Assembly (NCBI GenBank): GCA_033286805.1
Contig: GCA_033286805.1_4727.1
DNA length: 64,000 nucleotides
Origin: a phage
Reading direction: 5' to 3' (one strand)
The position numbers and the translations under genes are program-made. The notes below the pieces were generated by a model. The model saw nothing but the letters and a program-made list of their open reading frames with translations, did no database searches and was not told the DNA's origin. Below, one piece after another: positions 19,517 through 59,947 of this stretch (its first letter is position 1; every line of letters begins with the position of its first letter).

Positions 19517-19531
19517 TCAAAACAATGGATA

Positions 19532-21825: not shown

Positions 21826-21887
21826 CTTATACGTCTTTATGCGTTCCGTTCGTTCTGGAGCGTTTTAGGACGGTTTACTGCAAGGTT

Positions 21888-31914: not shown

Positions 31915-31924
31915 CCAAACATAA

Positions 31925-31956: not shown

Positions 31957-31965
31957 AATATGCTG

Positions 31966-40993: not shown

Positions 40994-41033
40994 ACGGATG
41001 TAAAAAAAATAACACATAGTTAACCTTCTCCCC

Positions 41034-41067
41034 AACCCGTAAGGGAAGGGGAGAAGGGCTATGCGCT
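41034..41067. terminator. CCTCC/GGAGG palindromic hairpin (H8)
   Basis: ccttctcccc-aa-ccc-gtaa-ggg-aa-ggggagaagg then GCTATGCGCTAT; A8 tract upstream; convergent junction 38084-40993(+)/41075-41350(-). Confidence 0.7.
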
Positions 41068-41074
41068 ATTTAAC

Positions 41075-41350
41075 TTATCTCGAGGTTAACCACGATTCAA
41101 TTGTGGTGAGGTTGCTTCGCAATACGCGCCAACTAGGGTGTGGTGGGATCACAGCACCTTGGTCGATTACGGTTAGCTGAGCCTGGTACTTCTGTTGCAT
41201 ACGGGCTACCGTAGCGTTTACCGAAAGGAAAAGCTGGTAACGTTCGTACGCCGTCAGTACAGCATCCATTTGGATTGCTTCGGTTGCTAAAACGATTTCG
41301 CGTAAGTCCTTTGCGTCCATCGGGACAGTAATGAGTTTATAATGACTCAT
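41075..41350 (-). CDS. hypothetical protein (91 aa)
   Basis: Small ORF ending at hairpin 41034-41067. Confidence 0.45.
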   Translation of the reverse strand: MSHYKLITVPMDAKDLREIVLATEAIQMDAVLTAYERYQLFLSVNATVARMQQKYQAQLTVIDQGAVIPPHPSWRVLRSNLTTIESWLTSR

Positions 41351-41399
41351 AGGGTTTCCTTATCAACCAGGGTATCGCGTTAACAATACCCATCGTCAA

Positions 41400-43958
41400 T
41401 TACTGTTCGTCGCGTTCCAACAGATACTCGGAAGCGGTAATACCGTTTACCGTACGTACTGCTTTCAGACGAGTATCATCACTCAGAATCACGGTAACAG
41501 ATTGCAGACCTTTTACTTTGGTTTCGAAGGTCTTGAACACCTGATCCAGCATACGAGCAATGCTTGGGTTGGTTGCAGCCGATGCGTGGGTGTAACCGCT
41601 TTGGTTCAGCTTCAGAATCTTGGCGTTGGTCGGTACGCGAACAACAACATGCGGACGCATCGCGAACACGCTATGATTAAACCAGTAAGCATCGTTGCTA
41701 TCTTCGTCGGTAACGATGTCTGGATTAACACGCATATCCTCGACAGCCGCATCCGCCAAACGCCGTTCGATTTCGTCAGCATCCAGAGAGCCATCTTTCT
41801 CCAGTTCTGCACGATACTCACTCATGGCAACCAGATGACGTTCACGATTCGCAGCGGATTTTTCGTGAGCTGCTTTCAGGTAGTCATGCATGTTGTACAG
41901 TTCAGCCATGGAAAGACGAATGTTCCACTGACCTTCGCCATCACGATTGCAGTAGAGGCACTTCAGCATGTTGACCCAGGTATAGTAGCAATTGGAGAAT
42001 TCATCTTCAATGAACTTCTGGTCCATTTTAAGATCGTGAATCAGCCAACCGGACAGTTCTCCGATATCATCAACGAAGCTAGAGATGGTGGTTTCAGAGA
42101 AGTTCTTCGGTACGATACGTTTGATCAGCTTGTTAACGTCTTTGGTCATGCTATCGTTCAGGAAATGCCAGATACGCAGAGGAATGACATCTCGATACTG
42201 TTGCATGATCTGACGATAAGCTTTGATATCGTCGCTACGACCTTTATCAATAGACAACGCATCCAGGAATTCATGGATTGCATCCAGCTCTTTGTCGGTA
42301 TAGGTTCCCAGATAGGAATTGACGGTGGCCAGGAATGCTAATGCGTCGTTTTGGTTGACGTCGGTGTTGGTCTGCTGAATGATCGCTACTGAAGCTTTGG
42401 TTTCAGCATCCTCAACGCTTGACGCTGCGATCGCATCGGTGACGGTAAACAGTTTCATTTCGCGCTGCTCACCGACAACGATTGGCTCACGCTGAACCGG
42501 CTTGTTAAGGCTAACACGAACAACTTCTGCTTGCGCGATACGATCCAGTTTTGCCATTTCCTGCTCTGCCATACGACGAGCGGTTGGATCTGATTCAAGT
42601 TCGATGTATTCCACTTCTTCCTCCGTGAGGGATGTAATGTCAACAATGGTTTCATGAAGAATTCCGTTTTCGTCGATACGTGCTCGACGAGCGAAGTGCC
42701 TGAAGTCATACAACGTCGGCCAACGACTATTAGGTGCAAAGTCTTTGGCTTTCAGACGCATCTGCATAAATTCTTCATGTTGAACAACACGACCGTAACG
42801 CTTAGCATCTTCGGTCGCATCAATTGGATTAACGGTCTTTGTTGCCGTAGCGGAACGAGCCGTACGAACCGGTTCCGGTTTCACCTGCGCAGGTTCAGGT
42901 TGAACGGGTTTCTGCTGCCCAGCCTTAACATGCCATTCTGGCTCTTCGTACTGTTCAGCAAATTGCTCGGCCGCTGCAAAGATATCGTTGATACCACCAA
43001 TATCTCCTTCAGGATTTGTCGAATATACTCGTGGTTGCGGTGCCTCGTAACGCGGCGCTGCGGTAGCAGGCGCGGCATCAACGATAGGATCATCATCACC
43101 AACATCATACAAACGGTTGAACGCACAATCCTTCGAATCAATGTACGATGGTGTTTGTGGTTGGACAACCGTAGGTCGAGGTTGTGTGCCGTATCCTGGT
43201 GTTGTTGGAGCCATACCACGCATAACTGCAGGACTAGGTTGGTATTGCGGTTGTGGGTAGGTTCCACCATACATGGCGTACGCAGGCTGTTGTGGTTGAC
43301 CATACCCGTTGCTAACCATCGCACTTGCTTGCGGCCCACGATAAGTCATCCCCATCTGCATCACCTGCTGCTTCAAACCACGTGACTTCTGAGCGATTTG
43401 CGCTAGGCTTCCGCTTTTATTCAGCTGCGTGTACTTGTTCGCGGCTTCCGGGTTAATGCGTGATAATTCAATCGCGCGATAATATTCCGGGTACTGATTA
43501 GGTTCAAAGAGCCACGTTACAAGATGATACAGCGCAACTGTGCTCACAGCAGCAGAGACGATCTGGTCGTCGGACGCGTTCTGTGGCATCGGGTTGATGT
43601 AAGAGAACACGTTCCAACAACAGTCTTCAACAAGCGATTCCATCATCATATCGTTATTGGTATAACGTGCGACGAACTCGGTTTGTATTTTGTCTTGCTG
43701 AGCGAAGTCTTTCAGGACATTAAAGATGGCTTGACGGATTTTGACGATCGTCGCTTCTTGGGTGATGAAGTTATAGTTCTGCTGATATGAGGGTTGTTGG
43801 TATTGTGGTGGTTGATAGGCGTTATTCGGATATGCACCGTACGGCGATTGCTGATACTGCTGCTGACGAACCTGTTCAGCCGCATAATTAATCGTGCTCG
43901 CATAAGGGTTTTCGCTATAGCCCATTTGCTGATACATGTTGTTACTGCCATTATACAT
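41400..43958 (-). CDS. large protein with Gln/Tyr/Pro-rich low-complexity regions (852 aa)
   Basis: N-terminal ~65 aa and an internal ~70 aa segment are Q/Y/P/G-rich (YQQ, PQYQQPSYQQNY, GYGQPQQPAY). Confidence 0.65.
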   Translation of the reverse strand: MYNGSNNMYQQMGYSENPYASTINYAAEQVRQQQYQQSPYGAYPNNAYQPPQYQQPSYQQNYNFITQEATIVKIRQAIFNVLKDFAQQDKIQTEFVARYTNNDMMMESLVEDCCWNVFSYINPMPQNASDDQIVSAAVSTVALYHLVTWLFEPNQYPEYYRAIELSRINPEAANKYTQLNKSGSLAQIAQKSRGLKQQVMQMGMTYRGPQASAMVSNGYGQPQQPAYAMYGGTYPQPQYQPSPAVMRGMAPTTPGYGTQPRPTVVQPQTPSYIDSKDCAFNRLYDVGDDDPIVDAAPATAAPRYEAPQPRVYSTNPEGDIGGINDIFAAAEQFAEQYEEPEWHVKAGQQKPVQPEPAQVKPEPVRTARSATATKTVNPIDATEDAKRYGRVVQHEEFMQMRLKAKDFAPNSRWPTLYDFRHFARRARIDENGILHETIVDITSLTEEEVEYIELESDPTARRMAEQEMAKLDRIAQAEVVRVSLNKPVQREPIVVGEQREMKLFTVTDAIAASSVEDAETKASVAIIQQTNTDVNQNDALAFLATVNSYLGTYTDKELDAIHEFLDALSIDKGRSDDIKAYRQIMQQYRDVIPLRIWHFLNDSMTKDVNKLIKRIVPKNFSETTISSFVDDIGELSGWLIHDLKMDQKFIEDEFSNCYYTWVNMLKCLYCNRDGEGQWNIRLSMAELYNMHDYLKAAHEKSAANRERHLVAMSEYRAELEKDGSLDADEIERRLADAAVEDMRVNPDIVTDEDSNDAYWFNHSVFAMRPHVVVRVPTNAKILKLNQSGYTHASAATNPSIARMLDQVFKTFETKVKGLQSVTVILSDDTRLKAVRTVNGITASEYLLERDEQ

Positions 43959-43992
43959 TTCTTACGATCCTTTTTATTTATTCGGTTATGTG

Positions 43993-45792
43993 TCAATCGA
44001 TTATGTCACGATCGTTAATTTCTACAATTTCTTCATCGAATCGACCGACGTCTTTCTTCAAGCCTGCATTGGTTGCTGCAACGTCATTTGCAATTTGTGG
44101 GGTAATGATTAACCGACCACGTTCGTCGATAGGTGCGTACATACTGAACTTTTGACGTCCGGTTGGTTCGGAGTGTGGAAGATTCAGATAGCTTGCACAG
44201 AACGGGATGGAACCACTAACCAAACGACTCTCGTCAGCCAATGCAGCACCGCCTGCGTTTTGGCTCTGGAGAACAACATGCGTGCTCACTTTGAACAGCA
44301 TGCAATCACCCGGTGACTGAATCGATGTTGCCACTTTCTCACGTTTATCACGATTGCTCTGGATATTGAGAATCGCTTCCGTTGCAACTTGATTTCGCAA
44401 CGCCTTCTGCACATCGCGATTGGTCATCTCTTTACGGTTGTTCTGTCGTTTGCCACGTTCTGTGGTTTTAAGATGGAACCCCAGTTTAAAGATGCTTTTA
44501 CGCACATCCTCCATGACATATTCCAACACCATCAATTCCTTACCGAACATCGTCGTGGTGTCAACACGACTCATTTCGATAGTAACATTGTCAATCAGAT
44601 ACGCCATAAATTCGTAGAAGTCGTCGCAAGGAATATTTTCCTGTTTGAACTTCTTCTGTTGAATTTCGTCAACGTAAAGATCGAGACTGTCGATGTGGTG
44701 GTTTACATCACGCAACAAACGCGCATCCGCATTGTTGTTATTAAAGATAATCAAACCGAGTAATGTACGCCAATGGTCTGGCGCATTTGCGAACTCCTCA
44801 ACCGGATAGTCTTCCGGAAAACGATCGTAATAACGGTCGATGAGATATAGGAACGCACCGACAAGGCCAAGAACAATACGTTCCGTGCCTCCACGTCTTA
44901 CAGCAATTTGAATATCAGGATGTTTGTAACGTACAGCGCTAGCGCTACGGCTTTTACCGCTTTTGCTGATACTAAAGCCTTTAGGAATAACCCCCATGGT
45001 GCGATAGATTACCCATTGGTCACGCGGAAAATCACGTTCAGCAAGGTTCCGTCCGGTTACGGCTTCGACACCTGCAAAACGTCGGAAACACTCACCCACC
45101 CCGTACTTCGCAAAGAGATAGTGACCCAGTGTGGTTACGCTGGTGTGGTTGATGTTGTCACCGTTCACTTTACTTTGTTTGGTAAGATGATAGATTTGCG
45201 ACCAGGGTAATGACAGGTAATGACGATAATCGATACCGGTCGGTGTATCATTGCTCAGGAACTGATACGGTGTACGTTTAACCGTGATTTTATCACGCGG
45301 AAGCATGATGAACGCCATGTCTTTCGTGTAACTGATTACGGGGTCAGCGAGTACCGCACTGAGAATGAAGTTCGCACCACGTAGACGCATTTTACCACCC
45401 TGACCTACCGCGGGTAATAGGAGAGGATGTCGGATAATGCAGTAGTCCTTTCCGGGTTCACGACGGTCGCCTGATTCCATCGCGCCGTACCAGCGGAATT
45501 CCAGCATCACCATAAACACATCGGAAGGCGCAAGGTCGAAGGTCAGCTTACCGCTATCCTTCCCTTTGGTTTTCTTTCCTCCGCTTAAGTAGTGGAACTG
45601 TTCGCGGGCCATACAGCGACGCAGGCCATGATACACCAGATCCTTAGGTAAACTATCTTTGCTGTTCCGCCAAAGACGATCAACATAGGACTCAACATCT
45701 TGCATCTTATCGACGACGATGTTGCGTGCTATCTTCTCGTTCATCTTCGGTGCAAGCTCAGCGACAGCTTTGCAGAATCTAGGATCCATCAC
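43993..45792 (-). CDS. hypothetical protein (599 aa)
   Basis: Long ORF on dominant strand; no motif recognised. Confidence 0.6.
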   Translation of the reverse strand: MMDPRFCKAVAELAPKMNEKIARNIVVDKMQDVESYVDRLWRNSKDSLPKDLVYHGLRRCMAREQFHYLSGGKKTKGKDSGKLTFDLAPSDVFMVMLEFRWYGAMESGDRREPGKDYCIIRHPLLLPAVGQGGKMRLRGANFILSAVLADPVISYTKDMAFIMLPRDKITVKRTPYQFLSNDTPTGIDYRHYLSLPWSQIYHLTKQSKVNGDNINHTSVTTLGHYLFAKYGVGECFRRFAGVEAVTGRNLAERDFPRDQWVIYRTMGVIPKGFSISKSGKSRSASAVRYKHPDIQIAVRRGGTERIVLGLVGAFLYLIDRYYDRFPEDYPVEEFANAPDHWRTLLGLIIFNNNNADARLLRDVNHHIDSLDLYVDEIQQKKFKQENIPCDDFYEFMAYLIDNVTIEMSRVDTTTMFGKELMVLEYVMEDVRKSIFKLGFHLKTTERGKRQNNRKEMTNRDVQKALRNQVATEAILNIQSNRDKREKVATSIQSPGDCMLFKVSTHVVLQSQNAGGAALADESRLVSGSIPFCASYLNLPHSEPTGRQKFSMYAPIDERGRLIITPQIANDVAATNAGLKKDVGRFDEEIVEINDRDIID

Positions 45793-45828
45793 ACACTCCT
45801 TTCAGAAAGTTGCTTAAGCAGATTAAAG

Positions 45829-47271
45829 TTACTTTTTCGATGACGCTTTCTCAAGAATCTTGAAAAAGGTCATACCTATACCGACAACAGCCGCGGTTAT
45901 GCTTGCAGCGGCTTTCCAAACATCGACGTTACGTTGACGTCGCGCTTCTTCCGCTTCACGTTGTCTTTTTGCCTCTTCATCACGTCGACGTATCTCAGCA
46001 GCAAACTCGTCGTGCTTACGTTTGGATTCTTCGTCTCGACGACGAAGTTCAGCGACGAATTCTTCATGTTTGCGTTTAGCCTCGTCATCACGACGTTTTA
46101 AATCAGCTTGATAATCTTCGTGTATTTGTTTACGTAGATCATCTTGACGCTTCATTTCGGCTTGGTGTTGTTCCATCCTACGTTTTTGTTCGTCTTTAAG
46201 CTGATCGAGTTCGGCTTTATGTTGTTCATCACGCAGCTTTGCGTCGGCGCGATGCGCCTCATGCATCTGTGCGATAACTGCCTTGTGTTCATCCGCCATA
46301 CGTCGCATTTCAGCCATCACCCCTTTAAGGGTTTCTTCTGATGCCTTACGTTCGTAGCTACGTTGGTCGAAATCATTTTTGTAGGCTTCTTTTTGGATGG
46401 GGTCGCGCCAATGTAATGCCGATTCACGTGTCGGAAAAACATTGTACTTCCACATCTCTTTTTCCAAATCTTCGACCGGTACGAAGATGGAGTCATTATT
46501 ACCGAAGGTAACCAACATACCTGGCGCACCTGCTCCATTCGTTGGTTTTATTTCGAACGCTTTCCCCAGCACGTTAACCCATAAGCTATACGGATTATGA
46601 AAGTCGGGTGGCGTCCAATGGATAGTGAGTTGCGTTCCGAGAATCCGGAAACCCTCTGTTTTTCCCGTCAAGCTCCGCGCGCACGTTGCGATGTAGGGGT
46701 GATCAATCCCTTTCGTAACGTGGTCTGCGCTTTTGTATTCTCCTTTAACTTTTACGATTGCCACGTTGATTTGCGCGACATAAGCGGGTTGATTAAAGTT
46801 CAGCGTGTTGAGGTCAATTTGACATATTTCATCCAGCGTATCGTACCAGTCTTGCTGGTCTAATAGACGCGGCATTTTCTCTGTGTTAACAATACGACGG
46901 ATATGCGGTTTCCTTATCGCGTAACCTGTGCCGTTTTTAACACGGAGTATATCCCGACGTCTACCCGCGTAGACGAAGTTTCTGAATGCACCATTCGCAT
47001 TAGATACGTCATGGCTGTCAACTATTACAGGACTACGAAATTTTGAACGTCGTACGATCCTGAATGTATTGCCGTCCTCAACCCTACCAGGAATGTACTG
47101 GAACATATTGTCGGAGGTGATAACCAACACGGTATGGCCAGATTCATTAATACATGCCCATCCTAATTCCAGGTCATATAACGGTTCGGCATAACCGTCA
47201 ATGCGATATGCGTGCGTACCATCCCACGGTTCGAACGCGGTATCACATATTGGCATGGAGGGCATCGTCAA
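45829..47271 (-). CDS. membrane-anchored protein with tandem charged 18-aa repeats and C-terminal TM helix
   Basis: First ORF after promoter box 47416-47439; C-terminal repeats RRRDEE[AS]KRKH[ED]EF[AV]AE[IL] then TM segment ITAAVVGIGMTFF. Confidence 0.6.
   Translation of the reverse strand: MTMPSMPICDTAFEPWDGTHAYRIDGYAEPLYDLELGWACINESGHTVLVITSDNMFQYIPGRVEDGNTFRIVRRSKFRSPVIVDSHDVSNANGAFRNFVYAGRRRDILRVKNGTGYAIRKPHIRRIVNTEKMPRLLDQQDWYDTLDEICQIDLNTLNFNQPAYVAQINVAIVKVKGEYKSADHVTKGIDHPYIATCARSLTGKTEGFRILGTQLTIHWTPPDFHNPYSLWVNVLGKAFEIKPTNGAGAPGMLVTFGNNDSIFVPVEDLEKEMWKYNVFPTRESALHWRDPIQKEAYKNDFDQRSYERKASEETLKGVMAEMRRMADEHKAVIAQMHEAHRADAKLRDEQHKAELDQLKDEQKRRMEQHQAEMKRQDDLRKQIHEDYQADLKRRDDEAKRKHEEFVAELRRRDEESKRKHDEFAAEIRRRDEEAKRQREAEEARRQRNVDVWKAAASITAAVVGIGMTFFKILEKASSKK
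45940..46110 (-). repeat. coding tandem repeat (~54 bp x 3) encoding RRRDEE[AS]KRKH[ED]EF[AV]AE[IL]
   Basis: Repeated DNA units ...cgacgacgaagttcagcgacgaattcttcatgtttgcgttt... within 45829-47271. Confidence 0.6.
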
Positions 47272-47415
47272 CCTCCATCTGATTGAAAACTATCACGCAT
47301 AATACATTTCCCTTTTCTTGTTCTTATCAAGCCGACAGCCGACGGTTTCAGCATCGTTCCTAGCGCGAGAACGACCTTACGTGTTGTCTATGCCTTATTC
47401 ATCGAAGGCGTCTGT

Positions 47416-47439
47416 CACCTAGGTAATGTAAGCGTCAAA
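47416..47439 (-). promoter_or_regulatory. conserved 24-bp promoter-like box, copy c
   Basis: CACCTAGGTAATGTAAGCGTCAAA; between hairpin H9 and start of 45829-47271(-). Confidence 0.55.
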
Positions 47440-47473
47440 TTTTTTCTATTCGCAACGATAAACGGCATAGAAA

Positions 47474-47503
47474 CCTCCCCCAACCCTTACGGGCTGAGGG
47501 AGG
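47474..47503 (-). terminator. CCTCC/GGAGG-type hairpin (H9)
   Basis: cctccccc-aa-ccc-ttac-ggg-ct-gagggagg; ~100 nt downstream of 740-aa gene stop and 35 nt upstream of promoter box 47416-47439. Confidence 0.65.
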
Positions 47504-47602
47504 CTGACTTATGTATCACGGTGCCGGATGAATGTCCGGTGCAATGAAACCATCCGCAACGTTGTCGTCAAGAATATCATCCAACGAAGCAGCTACGGTA
47601 GT

Positions 47603-49825
47603 TCAGTTAGTCTGAACCGGCAGCTTGATGTTTTCAGTGTAGACCTTACGCAGGTTCACAACGTTAATCAGACCCAGCAGCGGGCAGTTGTTAACGAAGC
47701 GGCAGCGCGGCTGAACCATGGTTTCTTTAGAAACCTGACCGTTACGGGTAACCTGAGCAACAGATACCAGTTCCGGTACATACAGGAACATACCGAAGGT
47801 CAGCGGATCCGGAGAACCCTGGATACCACGAGACAGGGTCACGAAGATCTTATCGCGCAGCATGACGTTCGGGTTATCTACAACCACGAAGTTGAAGCTT
47901 ACACCAACGGTACGGAAATCGCCATCGGTCTGCAGGAACTGCGGGATGTAGTTGTCAGTTGCTACTACGCAACGCGGTTTCTCATCAGCGTTGGAAGACA
48001 GCAGCTGCAGAGCTGGCTGATAACCAGACTCAGAGTACATGCGGTATGCCATTTCACGAATCACGTTCATGATCGCAGCAGACACTTCAGCACGACGTTC
48101 TGCGGTGGTGGTACCCTGAACAGATTTCTCCAGGTCCAGGTTGATTTCTTCGAACCACGGACGGATCAGGTAACGACCGAAACCTTCGATCTGGATGTCA
48201 CCGAACTGACGGAAGCGAGAGGTCGCAACCGCTTTCAGTGCGTCTTTGTAGCTGAACAGTTTCTCAACCATCAGGTTGTCGAAACGTGCGTTAGCAGCTT
48301 GGATCAGAACGTCCAGGTCAGCAGCGTTTTCTTCCCAATCCAGCGGACGAGGAATGGAGAACGGAGCCAGCAGGCCGATTGCGTAACGTTCTTGCTTCAT
48401 GTTGAAGTCAAGGTGCTTACCGCGCTCACGACGGTTGCTGTTGTTACGGCGGATACGCAGTTCGTAACCAACCAGTTTGAAGCTCAGGTCTTCAGCCAGT
48501 TGTTTGAACTCTTCGCTCTTACGCGGTTGTTCGATGTTGTCCTGATCAACCAGGCGATACAGTTCAGCGTTAGCGCCGTTAACACGCAGACCCGCTTTCT
48601 CTACGTTGGAAGAACCGTAAACTTCGATCGCCAGCTGAGCAGCAGATTTCGCATCGATGATGTCCTGCAGCGCTTCAGCTTTCGCACCTTTAACGTCTTT
48701 GGTGTTCTCATCAACGAAGATGGAGTGAGTGTCGAACGCCAGGGTCATTTTGCGGAAGTCGCCTTCCAGGGATTTCTGGAAACCGTTGGTGATCAGACCA
48801 GATACGTCGAACGGTACGTAAGAGGTTTTGCTGTGCTTGGTAGATTTGATTTCCACCAGGATTTTGGTCAGCGTGATCTGGGCGTCCAGCGCGTCGGTGT
48901 TGTCGCTGTAACCGTTAGCCAGGATGCTATCGTCTTCAGCGATACCGATCATGTCGATCAGTTTATCAACAGCCAGGTAAGACGTTTTATAAGTTACGCC
49001 TTTAATTTCGATGTCACGCGGAGCAACGATAGTTTTGTCAACGAAGTACTGCGCGTTAGCATCGTCAGCACGATAGATCGGATGCAGATCGGTCACGTCG
49101 TTGGACAGAACGTCGTTGTACATGAACGCATCCAGCAGCGGACGACGTACCCAATCAGCCGGAGTACCGTCAGCGTTACGACGCAGGTGGTTGAACACCA
49201 GCGGACGACGGAAAGATACATCATAACCGATCTGGTTCGGAGCCAGAACGATGGTGTTGTACAGTTCGTTACCCATGCGGCTCAGACGAGAAGCCTTCAC
49301 GTTGAACACAACGGAGTACGGCATCATGTCACGCAGTTCTTTCTGGTCGTAGGACAGCTGAACCAGTTCTTCAGATTCGCAACCGCAGGAATCAGCAGCC
49401 ATCATGACGAAGTTAGAGCTATCGACTTCACGGCCAGACGGAGTGGTGCTGATGTTCATGGAACGTGCTTGTTTAGCATATTCCACCGGGTTGCCATGAG
49501 CCAGCATGATCAGTGCTGCTGCACGAGCCTGCTGTGCGTTCATGGTGAACAGCTGTTCTTCAATACGCTGCTTCTCTTCCGGAGTGGTGGTTTCGAAGCC
49601 CAGCATGGACAGAACCGGTTCTTCGGCTTTACGGATGTCGCTGCTGAAGCTCTTAACATCCATTTCGTTAACCAGTTTGTCCATGGATTTGAAATCAACC
49701 TTAGAAGCAGATTCCATAGACAGGAAGGTGTTCTCCAGACCTTTGTCTGCTGGTTTGCTACCATTAGCGGTCAGGAACTGGCGAGTGGCCGCGACCTGTT
49801 GGCTAAGAAGGGTTTTATCATTCAT
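47603..49825 (-). CDS. major virion structural protein (740 aa); major capsid or tail sheath candidate
   Basis: Strongest codon bias in window (CTG, CCG, CGT, GGT, AAC, TTC preferred); antisense frame stop-free for 766 codons; followed by hairpin 47474-47503. Confidence 0.75.
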   Translation of the reverse strand: MNDKTLLSQQVAATRQFLTANGSKPADKGLENTFLSMESASKVDFKSMDKLVNEMDVKSFSSDIRKAEEPVLSMLGFETTTPEEKQRIEEQLFTMNAQQARAAALIMLAHGNPVEYAKQARSMNISTTPSGREVDSSNFVMMAADSCGCESEELVQLSYDQKELRDMMPYSVVFNVKASRLSRMGNELYNTIVLAPNQIGYDVSFRRPLVFNHLRRNADGTPADWVRRPLLDAFMYNDVLSNDVTDLHPIYRADDANAQYFVDKTIVAPRDIEIKGVTYKTSYLAVDKLIDMIGIAEDDSILANGYSDNTDALDAQITLTKILVEIKSTKHSKTSYVPFDVSGLITNGFQKSLEGDFRKMTLAFDTHSIFVDENTKDVKGAKAEALQDIIDAKSAAQLAIEVYGSSNVEKAGLRVNGANAELYRLVDQDNIEQPRKSEEFKQLAEDLSFKLVGYELRIRRNNSNRRERGKHLDFNMKQERYAIGLLAPFSIPRPLDWEENAADLDVLIQAANARFDNLMVEKLFSYKDALKAVATSRFRQFGDIQIEGFGRYLIRPWFEEINLDLEKSVQGTTTAERRAEVSAAIMNVIREMAYRMYSESGYQPALQLLSSNADEKPRCVVATDNYIPQFLQTDGDFRTVGVSFNFVVVDNPNVMLRDKIFVTLSRGIQGSPDPLTFGMFLYVPELVSVAQVTRNGQVSKETMVQPRCRFVNNCPLLGLINVVNLRKVYTENIKLPVQTN

Positions 49826-49974
49826 TGAAAGTATCCTTTACAGAATTAACTTATATAAGTCGGTCGATAGACCATAGCGTACACGCGTGCATGCGCCACT
49901 ATAGTATCAGTAAACACTTACCGTTGTTTAGGCTGTGATACAACACTAAAAATGCCGCATAACTTTTCCCTACG

Positions 49975-50595
49975 TCATAAACGACGCAGGCGATAATGGA
50001 TGGAACGATTGGTGCAATATGAACGGAACAGCGGCAATTGCGCAACTTCCGCAAGACTCATATTAATTCGCAGGTGTTCAATAACGGCGCTGTAGTTATC
50101 AGCAATACGATCGCTCAATAACTCTTCTGCCAATAAAGGAAGACAATCGACAACAATCGCGATCACATCCTCATTAACATAACGCACCCGAACACTCAAC
50201 GGACGTTTGTCTGGGCTGTAAGTTGGATCCGCCAAACGACGTTCAATATCACGCGGATAGCTCGTCAGTAAATGGTAATAACCATTGTCATAACGATTGA
50301 TGTACTCACACAGCACATCAACATTCTTCTCTGGCGGCAAACCTGTTTCGTCATAGTGATACGCAAACATACCACCAAGCAGGTTGTTAAGATGAACTGC
50401 AGGGTTCGCTTGTTCGTGTTCTTTCGTGATGAAGAAAGGCACGTTTTGAGCTGCGAAATAAAAACCTACATCATTGGGCGATAGTATGCCGAAAAGACTT
50501 TTAGGGTCTAATAACACCTGTAAGTCATCACGCGCATTTCGAATAATCGCGTGTTCTACCCAATTCGGAACGACGAGATATCGGAGTTCCTTCAT
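49975..50595 (-). CDS. hypothetical protein (206 aa)
   Basis: ATG 50595 with AGAGG SD; divergent from 50635 gene. Confidence 0.55.
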   Translation of the reverse strand: MKELRYLVVPNWVEHAIIRNARDDLQVLLDPKSLFGILSPNDVGFYFAAQNVPFFITKEHEQANPAVHLNNLLGGMFAYHYDETGLPPEKNVDVLCEYINRYDNGYYHLLTSYPRDIERRLADPTYSPDKRPLSVRVRYVNEDVIAIVVDCLPLLAEELLSDRIADNYSAVIEHLRINMSLAEVAQLPLFRSYCTNRSIHYRLRRL

Positions 50596-50634
50596 TATGA
50601 TTACCTCTTTGCAAGTATCGAAAGGATTGAGTCG

Positions 50635-52245
50635 ATGGACCCAAAACAGATAGCCATTAAGATTATTACGTTACTGTTTCGTAATGCACAATTGAACCAT
50701 CCCGATCCCAGTACGATCGAACATGTTAAATCCGTCTTAGATAAAGTCGAACCCCCGAAAAACCATCTCGCTACAGACGTAGATAGAGAGGTTTTCAGCA
50801 ACCTGATGAACACCATTCATTGGATGCTGGAACAACCGTTATCGGAACCTTTCGATAAACAACAGTTGTTACAAAGGATACGTTTAGATTGCCTTGAACA
50901 AAGCAATCTTTACGAGATTCTTGCCGACGGACTGTACGATATCGAAGACGACGCTCATATCAGTAAGGTCTGTTCGCTCTATTACAACGAATTACGTAAT
51001 CTGATTACCCGTCGTCGTGTTTTCGAAACCTTTAGAAACACGTACATGGATATCAGTAACGGGCGACTTGGGGATAAAGAATTTTTCGATGCGATGGCGA
51101 ATCTGAAATTATCGCTAGACAGTATCGAAATGGATACCGAAAATCCCGAAGAGATGGCGTGTATGATTGACGGCTTTATCGCTGACAGCGAAGACGATAT
51201 CGAGAAAGTCGAACGTATGTTCGTCAAAGCGATGGAACGTAACAGTCCTGAAGGTGGATTTGTAACCGGCTGGCAAGGCTTTAATAAAATGTTGGGGTCG
51301 GTCGGTGTTTTACGTCGCGGTACCTTAGGACTGATTGGTGCAATGCAGCACCGGAACAAGTCAGGCGTGTTGTTAAAACTGTTCACACATCTGGCATTGT
51401 ACAACAAACCCCATTTCTTTTTCCCGGAGCGAGCAAAGAAAGCATTACTGATTCATTTGTCGACAGAAAACGAAGTGGAAGAAAACACGCTTCAGATATA
51501 CAAGAACATGCGAGAACAGGAAACAGGCGAATATGTCGATATTCGTAAGATTGACCCTCGCGAGGCATCACGTTATGTGTTGAAGGTGTTCAACGATGCG
51601 GGTTTCTCTGTTTGTATGCGTCGTGTTGATGGGATGAGTTACAAACAACTCGCTAATCTCATCGACCATTTCGAACGCATGGGTTATGAGGTCATGGCGT
51701 TGTTCATCGACTATCTGAAAATGTTCTCATCGGAAGGGCTGGATAGAAATGGACCGACCGGCGCATGGCTCCAAGAACTCTTTAACAAAGTCCGTAACCT
51801 CTGCAGCGTTAAACGTATTTTAGGTATGACCGTACACCAGCTGTCATCCGATGCGAAGATGCGTGCACGTGATGGCAACGATGAAGAGTTCGTTGACCAA
51901 GTCGCAGGTTTAAGTTACTGGGATGGTTGTAAAGGGATTGACCGTGAGATTGACCTCGAAGTGATTGTTGATATCGTTAAGGAACCGGGCAAACGTCAAA
52001 GCTGGCAGGTCTTTGCGTTAGGGAAAGACCGTCAACCGGATAACGGTTCAACGAAACCTGAAGACAAACATTTCGCGATGCCATTCCAAACCATCGGGAT
52101 GCTTCCTGATGATTACGGTAAGAAAGCAGTATATTGCCGCAAGGTTGGCGGACAACCTGTCTCCGAGGGAGGTAAAGGTCCGTGGAACAAGTTCGATGAA
52201 AACGCAGCACCGAGTAATGAATTACAATTTGATTTAGAATTTTAA
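50635..52245 (+). CDS. hypothetical protein (536 aa)
   Basis: ATG 50635 with AAGGA SD at 8 nt; followed by A9 tract and hairpin 52271-52302. Confidence 0.6.
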   Translation: MDPKQIAIKIITLLFRNAQLNHPDPSTIEHVKSVLDKVEPPKNHLATDVDREVFSNLMNTIHWMLEQPLSEPFDKQQLLQRIRLDCLEQSNLYEILADGLYDIEDDAHISKVCSLYYNELRNLITRRRVFETFRNTYMDISNGRLGDKEFFDAMANLKLSLDSIEMDTENPEEMACMIDGFIADSEDDIEKVERMFVKAMERNSPEGGFVTGWQGFNKMLGSVGVLRRGTLGLIGAMQHRNKSGVLLKLFTHLALYNKPHFFFPERAKKALLIHLSTENEVEENTLQIYKNMREQETGEYVDIRKIDPREASRYVLKVFNDAGFSVCMRRVDGMSYKQLANLIDHFERMGYEVMALFIDYLKMFSSEGLDRNGPTGAWLQELFNKVRNLCSVKRILGMTVHQLSSDAKMRARDGNDEEFVDQVAGLSYWDGCKGIDREIDLEVIVDIVKEPGKRQSWQVFALGKDRQPDNGSTKPEDKHFAMPFQTIGMLPDDYGKKAVYCRKVGGQPVSEGGKGPWNKFDENAAPSNELQFDLEF

Positions 52246-52270
52246 ACGCAAAAAAAAAGATTGTGCGGTT

Positions 52271-52302
52271 CCCTCCTCCAACCCGTAAGGGAAGGAGGAG
52301 GG
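52271..52302. terminator. CCTCC/GGAGG palindromic hairpin (H10)
   Basis: ccctcctcc-aa-ccc-gtaa-ggg-aa-ggaggaggg then GTTATGACCG; A9 tract upstream; convergent junction 50635-52245(+)/52319-52645(-). Confidence 0.75.
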
Positions 52303-52318
52303 GTTATGACCGCTTTGA

Positions 52319-52645
52319 TTAACTTATTGTCATGAATTCATTAGGTGAAAATTTCCAGCCGTTCTCAGTGAGAAGCGTGTTGAGTTTCGCTGCAACGATA
52401 AGCCACGCATGCATGGCTGTTACATCGTATTGGCGATTCACTCGACGTTGGTTTTCGATATTGATTTGCTCCTGTTCAGTGATGTTTGGATAAAGTGCGA
52501 TAGCGCTAGGTTTACCCAGCGCGCTAGTCATCACCGCCGTACATTCACTGATAATGTTGTTTAAGTGGTAGTTATACACCGTTCCACGCATGACGCGATG
52601 ACGGCATTCGATAATAGCGTCGTAAATGATTTCTCGAGTAATCAT
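52319..52645 (-). CDS. hypothetical protein (108 aa)
   Basis: ORF ending at hairpin 52271-52302. Confidence 0.45.
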   Translation of the reverse strand: MITREIIYDAIIECRHRVMRGTVYNYHLNNIISECTAVMTSALGKPSAIALYPNITEQEQINIENQRRVNRQYDVTAMHAWLIVAAKLNTLLTENGWKFSPNEFMTIS

Positions 52646-52651
52646 GATAAT

Positions 52652-53053
52652 TTAAAACATACGGTCGTTTTTAGCACGGGCGTTCATTACCAGATCGTAG
52701 ATGCCTGCGGTTCGTAAGCACTCTTCGTAGTAACGATGTGCGCCTTCATCAGCCATCCACGATAACCCACGGCTATCCGCAACAATAACCAGTTTGTTAT
52801 TGTTGAACGCACACACCACACGGTAGGTCGCGTTGTTATTCGGGTCGCGAGTGATAAGTTCGTAGACGCCGTTAACAGGTTTACTGAATTCGCCATTTAA
52901 CGGAACGAGTTCGGTAGTACCTTCAGCAAACGTTACGTTGATCGGTGATGGATCTTTAGCGATAACAGTATATTCCACATTGTGTTCTTTACTGGTCATA
53001 ATACCGAAGTAAGAACTGACAGGGGAACGTGGTACACTAAGAATATTAAACAT
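52652..53053 (-). CDS. hypothetical protein (133 aa)
   Basis: ORF on dominant strand. Confidence 0.5.
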   Translation of the reverse strand: MFNILSVPRSPVSSYFGIMTSKEHNVEYTVIAKDPSPINVTFAEGTTELVPLNGEFSKPVNGVYELITRDPNNNATYRVVCAFNNNKLVIVADSRGLSWMADEGAHRYYEECLRTAGIYDLVMNARAKNDRMF

Positions 53054-53123
53054 AGATGTTGTCCTCTTAATTGGATTTAGATTGTTGGGTGTGTAATTGA
53101 GAAATGAAAACGTTGTTTCGGTT

Positions 53124-53693
53124 TTAGACGATGAGTGACCAGGTGGTAAGCACCCCGCTTGCGAATTCGAGCTTAAGACGTTTACCGATAAGTTGTTGTT
53201 GGATCATCTTCTCAGTGATACGTCGATCTTGCTGAACCGCTTTATCAAACGCTTCTTTTGCTTCAGCTTGGTAGAAGTTCGTTTCTTCGTTTTCGTCGAT
53301 CTCTTCGAGAGCATCCTCGTCGATGTCAGCAAGTTTCACTCGACCGTTTTCATCAGGTTGTTCTGCAGGTTCATTGTCATACGGCGTGTCTTTTGTTGGT
53401 GCGACACGATGTTGCAACTCGACCTGTGTTAACATGATCTCCATCTCACCATCGATAGGAATGATTTCATCGGCGCTGCCGTTTTCGGTCAGCTCTCGAC
53501 TTTCCAGTAATGTCGTCGTAACAGAGAACACCTCTTCAACAGGAACCTCATCATCGTCGATGGTGTTAACCGTGTTGCTGGTAACTTCGGCAACAACCAT
53601 CAAATCAAATGCGTGAGGGTCACCTGGCATTTTGATGCCTGGAAGTTTGTTGAGGTACCAAGGATCAAGAATCATGATTTCTGGATTAAACAT
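53124..53693 (-). CDS. acidic hypothetical protein (189 aa)
   Basis: D/E-rich; first substantial ORF downstream of promoter box 53897-53920. Confidence 0.5.
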   Translation of the reverse strand: MFNPEIMILDPWYLNKLPGIKMPGDPHAFDLMVVAEVTSNTVNTIDDDEVPVEEVFSVTTTLLESRELTENGSADEIIPIDGEMEIMLTQVELQHRVAPTKDTPYDNEPAEQPDENGRVKLADIDEDALEEIDENEETNFYQAEAKEAFDKAVQQDRRITEKMIQQQLIGKRLKLEFASGVLTTWSLIV

Positions 53694-53896
53694 CGTATTT
53701 TACCTTTCTATGTTAGGTGGATTGCGGATAGAAGAATCAATGCATAGATTGATCGTTCTATGTTAGAAATTATTGCCGAACTGGTTATGGTTATAACGCG
53801 TGTTTTCGTATGCTGACGGGTCGCGTATTAATAAGGTCATGACTGTATCCTCGATTATTAAGAGAAATTTACAACGATAACAGTAACCGCTGTTAT

Positions 53897-53920
53897 CACC
53901 TAGGTAATGTAGTCGCGAAA
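53897..53920 (-). promoter_or_regulatory. conserved 24-bp promoter-like box, copy d
   Basis: CACCTAGGTAATGTAGTCGCGAAA; between hairpin H11 and minus block starting at 53693. Confidence 0.55.
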
Positions 53921-53954
53921 TAAACTGGAGTAATGCGAAATAAGACAGCATAGA

Positions 53955-53987
53955 ACCCTCTCCCAACCCAGCAGGGAAGGGAGAGGG
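53955..53987 (-). terminator. CCTCC/GGAGG-type hairpin (H11)
   Basis: ccctctccc-aa-ccc-agca-ggg-aa-gggagaggg; just downstream of 53994-54626 gene and 35 nt upstream of promoter box 53897-53920. Confidence 0.65.
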
Positions 53988-53993
53988 AATATA

Positions 53994-54626
53994 TCACCAA
54001 TGATCGAAGGAACCAGGAGTGTTACGAACGATCTCAACTTGGAAGGTTATTGGTACTGATGGCAATGAAACATATTCGCGTTGCGATAGCAGGACGTTGT
54101 CTTCTCGCTCATCGATGCGAGTAGAACCCGTCAGAAATTGGAACATAGCGACTTGAAGCTCATCGGTGAAACGGAGGTACTCACCGATGTGTGGTGTTGC
54201 ATCATATCGAATAAGTACGTTGCCAAACCGTCGTGCGATATTTGGAGTATCTGTGAACGAAACAGGGAAATCCAAAGTCATTCCCATCGTTTCACCTGGC
54301 TTCATTTTCCGAATCGACGCAATTGGCGCGTCGAAGATATTCCATTCTTCTTTCATCGTGTCTGGAAACACACCGCGATACAAGATGGTCTTTTGATGAC
54401 GATGAACGGGTTGTAAACGGTCAACCAATATTTTCAAAGGTTTAAGTTCTTCAGCCAATTCATAATCTGCTTGGATGTTCCACTTTGCCGCAAGTTCCAT
54501 TAGGTTGGGATACGCGCTATATTTATTGACGATAGCCCAGTTAACATTACGCAAATCGATAGGAAGGAATTTGATAATTTCCTTGTTGAATATCCATTGG
54601 TTTAATTTCTTAATCTTCGAAAGCAT
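53994..54626 (-). CDS. hypothetical protein (210 aa); weak R-S-ExE ADP-ribosyltransferase-like pattern
   Basis: Start set at ATG 54626 (track start would overlap upstream gene). Motifs ILYRGV, VSFTDT, DEREDN in ART-like order; assignment speculative. Confidence 0.45.
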   Translation of the reverse strand: MLSKIKKLNQWIFNKEIIKFLPIDLRNVNWAIVNKYSAYPNLMELAAKWNIQADYELAEELKPLKILVDRLQPVHRHQKTILYRGVFPDTMKEEWNIFDAPIASIRKMKPGETMGMTLDFPVSFTDTPNIARRFGNVLIRYDATPHIGEYLRFTDELQVAMFQFLTGSTRIDEREDNVLLSQREYVSLPSVPITFQVEIVRNTPGSFDHW

Positions 54627-54642
54627 GATGTACTCACTACAG

Positions 54643-56010
54643 CTAAACGGTTGGACGAACGGTGTTGTCTTTTTCTGGTGCAAGCCATAACGTGACCGTA
54701 CCATGACATGTCCACTGTGGCTCACGTACAGAAGAACCTGCCATCGTAACAGCACAATCGGTACGCATGATAACCCCGTATGCTTCGCAGAGATTGTTAT
54801 CCTGCATCCACACAACTTTAGCAGGCATGCCGGGATACAACAAATCCATGTTTGCGTATTCCCACACCAACTGCATTGTTCTACCGCGTAATCCAGCAGT
54901 ATTGCTTAATTCACGCCATCGGTTATCGGTTACGCGTCCCATCCCTTTCGCCACCTTCACGTTATCGCTACGTTCTTCAGTTACGTACTCGCTAACGTTT
55001 ACGGTACGACTGATTATCGTATCACCCCCTTTTGATAATGTCATTCCCTGACTCATCTGACTTGCCGAAACAAAACGCCCGCCCGCATTACCTAACAACG
55101 AAGCCGCGTTATTGATGTCGCTTACCGACGCCCCTCTCGTACAGGCAATTTCCACGTATTTGTCACGATTGATCCAGGTCTTGTCCATGCCCGGAAACAT
55201 ATCGGCAGGATAGTTGTAAAAGATAGCCGTGCGCCGACCGTCAGAGAAACGGGTTTCGTCATAGAGAGGATAAATATACAGATACGGAGATTGGTAATAA
55301 CAACCGACATCCGCTGAATAAATACCGACCTGGTTCTGGATTTTGTCTACGAGATCCATTGCGTTGGTACCGTGCGGAAGAATAAGCAACTTGAACAGGT
55401 TGTCGTTATTCGGTGCAACAATATCCACACCCTGCATTTTGAATCCGGTGTCGGCTTCAACCGCAGAAAGTATTTTGCTGAATTCGAGCCGTAACACATC
55501 CAGAACTTTCGACCCGGTATAGTTTTCACCGGTTTCTGATTGCATGAAGCTTTCAAGAACAGGATCGAACAGTTGAAATTGAAGATCGACCATTTGCTCG
55601 TAGTCTTTCTTCGAAGAATCGGTTGCGGTACGTTCGTCGGTAGCAGACATACGACTGTCTACGGTTGTTAAACAAACCGCTCGGTAGACGTAAGCTTGTG
55701 CGGCATCGTCTACGGTTTGGCGTTGTCCGCGCATCAGGCTGTACGCCTGCACGATGATGCGCATTTTAAGTTGTTGTTGGTATGGTAGAATGTATTTTCC
55801 GTAACTGCCCGGTGGGAACTTTACAGAAATATAAAGTTCATCCCCTGCGTTACGTTCATAGTCTCGATACGTGTGGACTTGAGTCACTAAAGGAACAGAC
55901 ACCGTCATTGACGGCGTGATTAATTCCGCGGTGACTTTATACGCAACAGCAACTGCTTCCTGCGCAAATGTACCGATATACCGTCCTAACGGCGTCTGTT
56001 TGTAATCCAT
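54643..56010 (-). CDS. hypothetical structural protein (455 aa)
   Basis: Long ORF in tightly packed minus block. Confidence 0.6.
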   Translation of the reverse strand: MDYKQTPLGRYIGTFAQEAVAVAYKVTAELITPSMTVSVPLVTQVHTYRDYERNAGDELYISVKFPPGSYGKYILPYQQQLKMRIIVQAYSLMRGQRQTVDDAAQAYVYRAVCLTTVDSRMSATDERTATDSSKKDYEQMVDLQFQLFDPVLESFMQSETGENYTGSKVLDVLRLEFSKILSAVEADTGFKMQGVDIVAPNNDNLFKLLILPHGTNAMDLVDKIQNQVGIYSADVGCYYQSPYLYIYPLYDETRFSDGRRTAIFYNYPADMFPGMDKTWINRDKYVEIACTRGASVSDINNAASLLGNAGGRFVSASQMSQGMTLSKGGDTIISRTVNVSEYVTEERSDNVKVAKGMGRVTDNRWRELSNTAGLRGRTMQLVWEYANMDLLYPGMPAKVVWMQDNNLCEAYGVIMRTDCAVTMAGSSVREPQWTCHGTVTLWLAPEKDNTVRPTV

Positions 56011-56012
56011 GT

Positions 56013-56618
56013 TTAACGACCCCGTTGCTGTTGTTGAATGATGAATTCTTCGATCTTCGTACCACGGAATTCGCTGTGACGAACTGCTTGCAGTTGCTCT
56101 TCAACGGTTGGGCCTGCATTGAGACCACCACGACGTGCGCGGTTGATGCCGATTTTACGACGCTGGCCGATTTCACGTAAACGTGAAGATAATCCGCTCA
56201 TTTCGGTTGGGTCTTTAATGCGACCGCGTGCAACGTTCCACAGACCACCCATGAACTCTTCGAGAATACGACTGGCTTCGAGAGACGGTACGCGTGCGTT
56301 AGGATCGTTTTCGAGATTGTATTTAACGTATTCCGTGTGTTCCAGAAGAAGCATGAACATCTTCATGGCGTTCACGTCAGGATTTGCAATACGCATAGGA
56401 ACACCACGAGAATGTTTTTCAGCAGCCTGCGGTACGGTAAGCTGTGCGGGCACCTCTTCGTTCATGGCCATATCGTCGATTTCTGCAACCCCTGAAGAGT
56501 AGACGCCGCTGACCTCATTGGTGTAATTGTCCACCATGAATTTACGGGGAATCCAGAATTCGAATTTACGTTCAAATAGACGTTTGGTTGGGGTATCTTT
56601 AACGTGTTGTAGACTCAT
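56013..56618 (-). CDS. hypothetical protein (201 aa)
   Basis: Overlaps upstream gene by 4 nt. Confidence 0.55.
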   Translation of the reverse strand: MSLQHVKDTPTKRLFERKFEFWIPRKFMVDNYTNEVSGVYSSGVAEIDDMAMNEEVPAQLTVPQAAEKHSRGVPMRIANPDVNAMKMFMLLLEHTEYVKYNLENDPNARVPSLEASRILEEFMGGLWNVARGRIKDPTEMSGLSSRLREIGQRRKIGINRARRGGLNAGPTVEEQLQAVRHSEFRGTKIEEFIIQQQQRGR

Positions 56619-59859: not shown

Positions 59860-59904
59860 CGCAGATTCCTGTTTGAAAGATAAGATATCACATGATGGTC
59901 GACA

Positions 59905-59932
59905 GCATAAAGCCCACCCCGAAGGGCGGGCT
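59905..59932 (-). terminator. intrinsic terminator, TTCG-tetraloop family (T2)
   Basis: Minus strand agcccgccc-ttcg-gggtgggct then TTTATGCTGTCG; 16 nt downstream of stop of 1128-aa gene; homologous to T1. Confidence 0.75.
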
Positions 59933-59947
59933 GTTTATGCGTACGGA

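Follow-up and report, generated by a model that had tools for sequence, protein, structure and literature searches.

The systems most closely related to the phage studied here are Goslar, a jumbo phage of E. coli (Goslarvirus, Chimalliviridae), and the more distant Pseudomonas phage PhiKZ. Cryo-EM of Goslar has revealed a capsid of HK97 fold on a T=27 lattice in which gp41 is present in 1,615 copies per virion, and label-free quantification mass spectrometry of the virion detected gp41 and used it as a high-copy calibrant (bioRxiv 10.64898/2026.04.21.720040). In the same study the maps were found to lack density for gp41 residues 1-157, for which PhiKZ-like processing was suggested, the tail sheath was assigned to a separate gene (gp218), gp42 was placed in a vertex-binding complex and equated with PhiKZ gp119, and DUF7941 proteins were reported among the most abundant virion proteins (bioRxiv 10.64898/2026.04.21.720040). 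The capsid protein of PhiKZ, gp120 (PDB 8Y6V), is the founder of Pfam family PF25620 and likewise has a T=27 shell and an HK97 fold into which an I domain is inserted, but shares only ~26% sequence identity with the protein described below and belongs to a phage of a different host. Its N-terminal segment is removed by cleavage at Glu163|Asn164. The late promoter of PhiKZ is TATG, with the G as +1, and one or more promoters of the capsid gene's own have been reported in both PhiKZ and phage 201phi2-1. Transcription termination in PhiKZ has been mapped at 61 terminators with the motif 5'-BCCYCCCCHWWDGGGRRGGBYTTATKYYGT-3' (PMC10914365), and a similar motif has been described in 201phi2-1 (PMC11512511). 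For Goslar-like phages, our literature search turned up no map of transcript ends.

The 64-kb stretch of DNA analysed here, which we refer to as the window, is ~97.8% identical to Goslar in DNA, and the phage is an isolate distinct from Goslar. It carries a capsid gene at the following position.

47603..49825, minus strand: gene for the major capsid protein, made as a 740-aa precursor (open reading frame with ATG start and TGA stop; ortholog of Goslar gp41 and PhiKZ gp120)

The product has a single Pfam match, to PF25620 (PhiKZ_MCP; E=5e-218, 725.7 bits against a cut-off of 27), which spans model positions 2-635 of 635 and capsid residues 98-731, and it also matches PHROG 3231, major head protein (E=2.3e-164). 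Compared with Goslar gp41 (NC_048170, HOV27_gp041 'major head protein', YP_009820726.1), the protein is equal in length (740 aa) and 99.6% identical, with 3 amino-acid differences, and the genes differ at 25 of 2,223 nucleotides, with 22 synonymous differences. All of its PDB matches (11bt, 11fg, 11mk, 11ml and 36za) are capsid proteins, and 11bt and other near-identical chains align over 740 aa with 1640 bits. Near-identity to these solved chains assigns the HK97 fold to the protein, with its N-arm, P and A domains, the inserted I domain, and both hexons and pentons. Judged by sequence, the gene encodes a major capsid protein of the PhiKZ type, with HK97 fold, and belongs to a Goslar-like jumbo phage; the product is a capsid rather than a sheath protein. 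None of the observations speaks against this identity. It was already known, as RefSeq lists the Goslar gene under the name major head protein and the cryo-EM structure of a 99.6% identical protein has been published. The 740-aa precursor assembles into a T=27 shell of HK97 fold that is built of hexamers and pentamers and, as counted in Goslar, contains 1,615 copies per virion. From codon bias and length, the initial annotation had read the product as a major structural protein that a jumbo phage makes in very large amounts and had left the choice between capsid and sheath undecided; the first reading is borne out, and the Pfam and PHROG matches, the near-identity to Goslar gp41 and the solved structure settle the choice in favour of the capsid. 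Low abundance in virions, which was named at that time as the observation that would count against it, is not what is seen in Goslar, given the use of gp41 as a high-copy mass-spectrometry calibrant. In our view the best explanation of the locus as a whole is the capsid gene of a Goslar-like E. coli phage whose codons are tuned to the host and whose open antisense frame is a by-product of this tuning, and we put the probability of this reading at about 96%.

The codon usage of the capsid gene is the most biased in the window, as had been claimed from inspection of the sequence. Its ENC of 30.1 is the lowest, the next of the 56 ORFs standing at 42.0, and its CAI, calculated against a reference of 29 E. 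coli ribosomal-protein and EF genes, is 0.805, whereas the other ORFs of the window average 0.376 (sd 0.081) and do not exceed 0.647. On the same reference fusA and tufA of E. coli reach 0.792 and 0.836, values to which that of the capsid gene is comparable. The preferred codons are common to the capsid gene and the E. coli ribosomal-protein and EF genes in 17 of 18 cases, and the 18 codons that the capsid gene never uses, which include TTA, CTA and TCA, are all non-preferred in E. coli. These results suggest that the bias arose through translational selection. The capsid protein would be needed in the largest amount, driving its synonymous codons to the E. coli high-expression set, and it would be translated on host ribosomes with host tRNAs; no tRNA or tmRNA genes were found within the 64-kb window. 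Because the host of PhiKZ is a different one, this E. coli-type codon optimisation appears to be specific to the Goslar-like lineage. The gene offers a clean quantitative case of a phage capsid gene that matches host-optimal codons (CAI 0.80) within an otherwise weakly biased genome. The next most biased genes of the window encode DUF7941 proteins, which are also plentiful in the Goslar virion.

The strand opposite the capsid gene contains a second, even longer open reading frame.

47528..49828, plus strand: antisense ORF of 766 codons in the codon-aligned frame (-1), taken from the ORF listing; not a gene

The stop-free stretch itself begins at 47498 and comprises 776 codons. Because each codon of this frame is the reverse complement of a sense codon, antisense stops can only arise from sense TTA, CTA or TCA, and none of these is present among the 739 codons of the capsid gene. 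A codon choice that excludes these three triplets therefore leaves the codon-aligned antisense frame open along the whole gene; the remaining two antisense frames are interrupted by 27 and 44 stops. At the average codon usage of the phage, 21.9 occurrences of TTA, CTA and TCA would be expected in the capsid gene (P(0)=2e-11), whereas at the average rate of E. coli ribosomal-protein genes the probability of finding none in 740 codons is an unremarkable 0.055; the 394 codons of tufA contain none of them, and the 704 of fusA contain two. Long frame -1 ORFs in highly expressed genes have been ascribed to codon usage (Merino et al. 1994 and Silke 1997, as cited in PMC3454372). The cause is the same, namely preferred codons that do not include TTA, CTA or TCA. 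Compared with these known examples the 766 codons found here are unusually long, which reflects the length of the capsid gene together with the great strength of its bias. As a passive by-product of codon bias, the antisense frame has no biological signal of its own. Of the earlier remark on a stop-free 766-codon antisense frame, the existence of the frame is upheld, but its value as a signal is not, given the 18 avoided codons, the likeness to tufA, and the Goslar stop and pattern of variation discussed below. There is a warning for annotation here as well, as the longest ORF at the capsid locus (766 aa) lies on the wrong strand.

Other explanations of the capsid gene and its codons have to be weighed against this one. 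The one argument for regarding the 740-aa protein as a jumbo-phage tail sheath is size, as jumbo-phage sheaths are similar in length and likewise abundant. However, its only Pfam match is PhiKZ_MCP, at full length, it falls into the major head protein PHROG, every PDB match is a capsid protein, no sheath families are found among its Pfam and PHROG matches, and the sheath of Goslar is another gene (gp218), which leaves the sheath with practically no chance. Host-like codons could also stem from recent horizontal acquisition of the gene or from local base composition, and both the GC3 of the capsid gene (0.594) and the GC content of the 48-50 kb bin (0.504) are in fact the highest of the window. 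Against acquisition, the homologs of the protein beyond Goslar-like phages are all jumbo-phage capsid proteins, with at most 34% identity, which points to no host source. Base composition does not have the power to explain the bias, because the ENC expected from this GC3 by Wright's formula is ~58.6, far above the observed value. The preferred codons also include codons that end in T or A (GCT, GGT, CGT, GTT, TCT, GAA and AAA), which fit the E. coli high-expression set, in keeping with the 17 of 18 agreement given above. Furthermore, the commonest synonymous changes in a comparison of four genomes (TCT/TCC, CGT/CGC, GGT/GGC and ACC/ACT) are swaps among codons that are already frequent in the capsid gene, which argues against acquisition and composition alike, and we consider either of them very improbable as the origin of the bias.

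A further proposal would be that the antisense ORF of 766 codons is a genuine gene overlapping the capsid gene, and that part of the codon choice of the capsid gene is kept so that the antisense frame stays open. The 776 open codons, the fact that the frame is open in three of the four genomes compared (including L004 and L005), and the probability of only 0.055 for an open frame at average ribosomal-protein codon usage would be in line with this, and there are reports of bacterial genes that overlap others in antisense and are translated (for instance PMC8850804 and PMC9927249). In reference Goslar (L001/L003), however, a synonymous change from TCT to TCA at sense codon 130 introduces a stop that closes the frame. 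Taken alone, this single stop shows that the antisense frame is dispensable, not that it is functionless, but the pattern of variation speaks against an overlapping gene more broadly: of the 81 codons that vary among the four genomes, 70 are silent and 11 amino-acid-changing in the sense frame, while in the antisense frame just 9 are silent and 72 alter the protein, the reverse of what purifying selection would produce. TTA, CTA and TCA are also just three of the 18 avoided codons, all of which are non-preferred in E. coli, and the antisense frame of tufA is likewise open. A Pfam search with the antisense translation returned no family, and no Shine-Dalgarno sequence is present 5-12 nt from the antisense ATG at 47528; a GGGAGG located 24-30 nt before this ATG is beyond Shine-Dalgarno range. 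Finally, the neighbour genes on both sides lie on the strand opposite to the antisense ORF. We therefore judge an overlapping gene to be exceedingly unlikely.

Returning to the capsid protein of a Goslar-like phage, its N-terminal part can be compared with the processed segments of its relatives.

49355..49825, minus strand: codons 1-157 of the capsid gene, an N-terminal segment missing from the mature shell and presumed to be a propeptide (the chain in PDB 36za begins at residue 158)

Maturation of the head would entail the loss of roughly the first 157 residues, presumably through removal of the propeptide by the prohead protease, with cleavage predicted after Glu150 or Glu153. In the capsid sequence Glu150, Glu152 and Glu153 sit shortly before residue 158. 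A search of the PDB with residues 1-201 alone did not reach PhiKZ gp120 and gave no residue-by-residue mapping of the PhiKZ cleavage site.

Upstream of the capsid gene, two further features are found.

49826..49974, minus strand: 149-nt spacer before the capsid gene, with the Shine-Dalgarno sequence AAGGA at 49834-49838 and two TATG motifs whose G lies at 49958 and 49873

49975..50595, minus strand: gene for a 206-aa capsid inner-surface protein of the vertex-binding complex, Goslar gp42 (PDB 11fg_E)

The 206-aa gene, which the initial annotation had placed in a short operon with the capsid gene, is indeed present beside it. Its product had no Pfam or PHROG match, but matches 11fg_E, 'PVC Protein gp42', over its full length (E=2.4e-139). 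A vertex-complex gene thus lies directly upstream of the capsid gene on the same strand, the neighbourhood conserved in both reference phages (gp119 before gp120 in PhiKZ, gp42 before gp41 in Goslar), and the order of neighbours is identical to that of Goslar, with gp42 upstream and gp40 and gp39 downstream. A short operon formed by the two genes is plausible, if putative. The 100 nt of the spacer closest to the capsid gene are invariant in four genomes, whereas ~10% of third codon positions vary in the capsid gene, and by analogy with the late promoter of PhiKZ the two conserved TATG motifs are candidate late transcription starts. Because such motifs occur in the spacer and none was found in the 165 nt that precede the 206-aa gene, the capsid gene may have one or more promoters of its own. 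The RNA fold of the 149-nt spacer was not significant (z=-1.6).

Downstream of the capsid gene lies a hairpin with an adjoining tail.

47473..47504, minus strand: 14-bp GC-rich hairpin with a GUAA loop, a putative PhiKZ-type intrinsic terminator, ~100 nt (99) after the capsid stop codon

47462..47472, minus strand: putative terminator tail, UUC-UAUGCCGU, which contains TATG and fits the TTATKYYGT tail of the PhiKZ motif

The sequence of the element is CCUCCCUCAGCCC-GUAA-GGGUUGGGGGAGG-UUUC-UAUGCCGU. It has a local fold of -36.2 kcal/mol (z=-5.5), a stability equalled by none of 200 shuffles, and it is unchanged in four genomes, Goslar included. A sliding-window scan with ViennaRNA showed that it is one of at least 10 intergenic hairpins that form a family, in which compensatory changes are found at 10 of 13 pairs. 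For the tail, TATGCYGT is present 10 times in the window against 3.7 expected, and 7 of these copies directly follow hairpins. An inverted-repeat search at the DNA level missed this family, whose stems contain G·U pairs and UU internal loops that are not complementary as DNA. A scan of positions 47000-51000 with consensus promoter and terminator patterns found no terminator and two sigma-70-like sites against 5.2 expected, but such a scan is uninformative here, since transcription in these phages relies on RNA polymerases of their own and the U-tract of the capsid hairpin, which is short and interrupted, is probably in part absorbed into the stem. Rfam gave 0 matches for the whole window at the gathering threshold.

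The hairpin shares with the mapped PhiKZ terminators a pyrimidine-rich 5' arm, a purine-rich 3' arm, a short loop, a T-rich spacer and TATG-YY-GT. It differs from them in that the stems of the window are longer, at 13-14 bp, and often contain a 2x2 UU internal loop, and the distance from stem to TATG varies by 0-5 nt among the window hairpins, that of the capsid hairpin being 1-2 nt off the PhiKZ consensus. Both the pattern (CCYCCCC...GGGRRGG followed by the tail TTATKYYGT and located after a gene) and the covarying family support the assignment to the PhiKZ-type intrinsic terminators, and the idea that the gene has a terminator of its own, put forward before these comparisons, gains support in the same way. 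Transcription of the capsid gene most likely ends at this hairpin, ~100 nt beyond the stop codon. The hairpin shows that the terminator design known from PhiKZ is also present in an E. coli chimallivirus, which could aid transcription maps of Goslar and engineering tools for it.

A bolder and in our estimation rather doubtful possibility is that the PhiKZ-type hairpins of the window, that of the capsid gene included, are coupled terminator-promoter modules. The tail, a T-run followed by TATG-YY-GT, holds the TATG core needed by the non-virion RNA polymerase of PhiKZ for late initiation, with the G as +1, so that one element would both terminate transcription of the capsid gene and start it anew for gp40, the gene that follows. 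Convergent gene pairs would be served on both strands by hairpins flanked by CATA on one side and TATG on the other. That the design is conserved between phages of Pseudomonas and one of E. coli would suggest recognition by the phage polymerase and not by host factors.

Database matches identify the 740-aa protein as an object already known, namely the major capsid protein of a Goslar-like chimallivirus. The gene and the features around it are as follows.

47603..49825, (-): capsid gene, ORF of 740 aa
47528..49828, (+): antisense ORF of 766 aa, codon-aligned with the capsid gene
49975..50595, (-): upstream neighbour, 206 aa
45829-47271, (-): downstream neighbour (gp40-like), 480 aa
47473-47504: hairpin stem (14 bp, GC-rich) closed by a GUAA loop, about 100 nt beyond the capsid-gene stop codon

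The ORF listing agrees with the initial annotation in the length and coordinates of the capsid gene. The protein covers the whole model of Pfam PF25620 (PhiKZ major capsid protein gp120, E=5.3e-218), matches PHROG 3231 “major head protein”, and is 99.6% identical to gp41 of the jumbo phage Escherichia phage vB_EcoM_Goslar, which RefSeq also labels “major head protein”; the remaining relatives, none above 34% identity, are all capsid proteins of jumbo phages. The same capsid protein is found in PDB entries 11bt, 11fg, 11mk and 11ml (chains of 740 aa) and 36za (a chain of 583 aa beginning at residue 158), and further PDB matches are PhiKZ gp120 (8Y6V) and PhiKp24 (8BFL). In a 2026 preprint, Goslar gp41 was reported to adopt the canonical HK97 fold, comprising N-arm, P and A domains and an inserted I domain, to be present at 1,615 copies per virion in a T=27 shell, and to have served, as a high-copy protein, to calibrate virion mass spectrometry (bioRxiv 10.64898/2026.04.21.720040). 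The initial annotation had proposed a major structural protein, which was essentially right given these family matches and published data, and had left capsid and tail sheath open; the Pfam, PHROG, PDB, Goslar gp41 and preprint evidence answers this as capsid, and the matches rule out a sheath. Residues 1-157 gave no density in the Goslar maps, and the preprint suggests processing as in PhiKZ, where cleavage of the capsid protein occurs at Glu163|Asn164 (PMC11297242). In our protein Glu150, Glu152 and Glu153 sit just before the first ordered residue, and it is therefore a reasonable inference that one of them is the candidate cleavage site.

The 18 kb around the capsid gene (window 40000-58000) are 97.8% identical to Goslar DNA. 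In the capsid gene, the window differs by 30 nt from IMGVR_UViG_3300045988_173921 (L004) and by 62 nt from IMGVR_UViG_3300011560_000001 (L005), two metagenomic Goslar-like contigs. None of the four available sequences matches the window exactly, which makes it a further isolate of this species.

The capsid gene had been described as having the most biased codon usage in the window, and this held in our proxy gene set, for which we took 56 ORFs that do not overlap and are 90 aa or longer: its effective number of codons (ENC) is 30.1, and the next lowest is 42.0. Base composition does not explain this bias, because Wright's formula predicts an ENC of about 58.6 from its GC3 of 0.594. Measured against 29 ribosomal-protein and elongation-factor genes of E. 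coli K-12, which average 0.68, the CAI of the capsid gene is 0.805 (fusA 0.792, tufA 0.836), compared with 0.376±0.081 and a maximum of 0.647 for the other phage ORFs. Of 18 degenerate amino acids, 17 share their top codon with the E. coli reference; Leu is encoded by CTG in 96% of cases, Phe by TTC throughout, Arg exclusively by CGT or CGC and Gly by GGT or GGC, and the gene lacks 18 sense codons altogether. No tRNA genes were found in the window. This pattern most probably reflects translational selection acting on the protein produced in the greatest amount. DUF7941 proteins hold CAI ranks 2 and 4 and a GH108 endolysin rank 3.

20012-20905 (-), 20982-21590 (+), 21888-22523 (-): two DUF7941 paralogs (CAI 0.53, 0.65) and a GH108 + PG_binding_3 endolysin (CAI 0.58)

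As DUF7941 proteins are among the most abundant (high-copy) proteins of Goslar virions (bioRxiv 10.64898/2026.04.21.720040), codon adaptation appears to follow protein abundance in this phage.

The open antisense frame noted initially is real as a frame, as the 766-aa ORF lies inside a stop-free stretch of 776 codons starting from 47498, but it is a by-product fully explained by codon bias. In a codon-aligned antisense frame, only the sense codons TTA, CTA and TCA yield stops, and these are among the 18 non-preferred codons that the capsid gene avoids. Other phage genes use them at about 30 per 1,000 codons, which gives 21.9 expected in the capsid gene (P(0)=2e-11), whereas the highly expressed E. 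coli reference uses 3.9 per 1,000 (P(0 in 740)=0.055), with none in the 394 codons of tufA and 2 in the 704 of fusA. The ORF fits the established origin of long frame -1 ORFs, attributed to codon usage (Merino 1994, Silke 1997, as cited in PMC3454372). The alternative, that it is a gene, was rejected. Of the 25 nucleotide differences between the window and Goslar, 22 leave the sense protein unchanged and 23 alter the antisense protein, and the frame is not conserved in Goslar, the closest relative, where TCT→TCA at sense codon 130 introduces a stop. Across four genomes (window, Goslar, L004 and L005), the 81 variable codons comprise 70 silent and 11 amino-acid-changing in the sense frame, against 9 silent and 72 amino-acid-changing in the antisense frame. 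This evolutionary test is decisive. The antisense product also had no match in Pfam, no Shine-Dalgarno sequence lies at a usable distance from its ATG, and the genes on both sides are on the opposite strand. Because the ORF exceeds the real capsid gene in length, it is a trap for annotation.

The 206-aa upstream gene corresponds to Goslar gp42 (PDB 11fg_E, E=2.4e-139), which the preprint places in the vertex-binding complex of the capsid and equates with PhiKZ gp119. The pairing is thus functionally coherent, and the gene order is that of genes 119 and 120 in PhiKZ. The non-virion RNA polymerase of PhiKZ has the late promoter P119L as its standard template, and PhiKZ late promoters require TATG with G as +1 (PMC4666361); the capsid genes of PhiKZ and 201phi2-1 are each reported to have three promoters upstream (PMC11512511). 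The 149-nt spacer upstream of our capsid gene contains two TATG motifs (G at 49958 and 49873); the 165 nt upstream of the gp42-like gene contain none. Just before the capsid ATG, the 100 nt at 49826-49925, with the TATG whose G is at 49873 and with the Shine-Dalgarno AAGGA, do not vary among the four Goslar-like genomes, compared with about 10% variable third codon positions in the capsid gene, and are probably a promoter/5'-UTR element. Given these motifs and the invariant segment, the capsid gene may have its own promoter(s), with the TATG sites as candidates; the short operon with the 206-aa gene proposed in the initial annotation would be plausible. The divergent DnaB-like helicase ORF, given a mechanical start at GTG 50551, would share 45 nt with the gp42-like gene; with the start at 50635, to which the Goslar annotation maps, only 39 nt separate the two divergent genes, and these contain no TATG. 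Downstream, the gp40-like protein has highly charged repeats (RRRDEE[A/S]KRKH[E/D]EF[V/A]AE[L/I]) and a hydrophobic C-terminal segment, and gave no match in Pfam or PHROG.

The hairpin after the capsid gene has a local fold of -36.2 kcal/mol (z=-5.5) and is followed by UUUCUAUGCCGU; a simple terminator scan did not pick it up. Folding the whole window in sliding windows with ViennaRNA placed it in a family of 10 or more intergenic hairpins.

3961-4004, 8109-8152, 15145-15188, 19953-19996, 21789-21832: family hairpins
31917-31960, 41017-41060, 47465-47508, 52261-52304, 53945-53988: family hairpins
7461-7504, 59901-59944: hairpins with different stems

In this family, the 5' arm is rich in pyrimidines (CCCUCCUCC-UU-CCC) and the 3' arm in purines (GGG-UU-GGAGGAGGG); the tail, T(1-5)ATG[C/T], includes the TATG late-promoter core. 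Among ten aligned copies, compensatory double changes occur at 10 of 13 stem pairs. Many copies are flanked by convergent gene pairs and read as CATA...hairpin...TATG on both strands, and TATGCYGT occurs 10 times in the window against 3.7 expected, 7 of these directly after hairpins. This is the design of the conserved PhiKZ motif 5'-BCCYCCCCHWWDGGGRRGGBYTTATKYYGT-3', shared by 61 experimentally mapped intrinsic terminators (PMC10914365), and 201phi2-1 has a similar motif (PMC11512511). By this analogy, the earlier proposal that the capsid gene has its own terminator is well supported. The covarying family of putative PhiKZ-type terminators in an E. coli phage is a mildly new observation.

Between convergent genes at 3961-4068, two strong hairpins, each of about -28 kcal/mol, stand in tandem with 13 consecutive A between them (13 T on the opposite strand) and look like a double, bidirectional terminator. 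Three long stretches hold no ORF of at least 90 aa, each with one or more stable hairpins.

376-1954: hairpin at 601-700
19151-20011: hairpins at 19525-19568, 19821-19864 and 19953-19996
53694-54137: hairpin at 53945-53988

An Rfam search gave no match in these stretches, which may hold small genes or non-coding RNAs.
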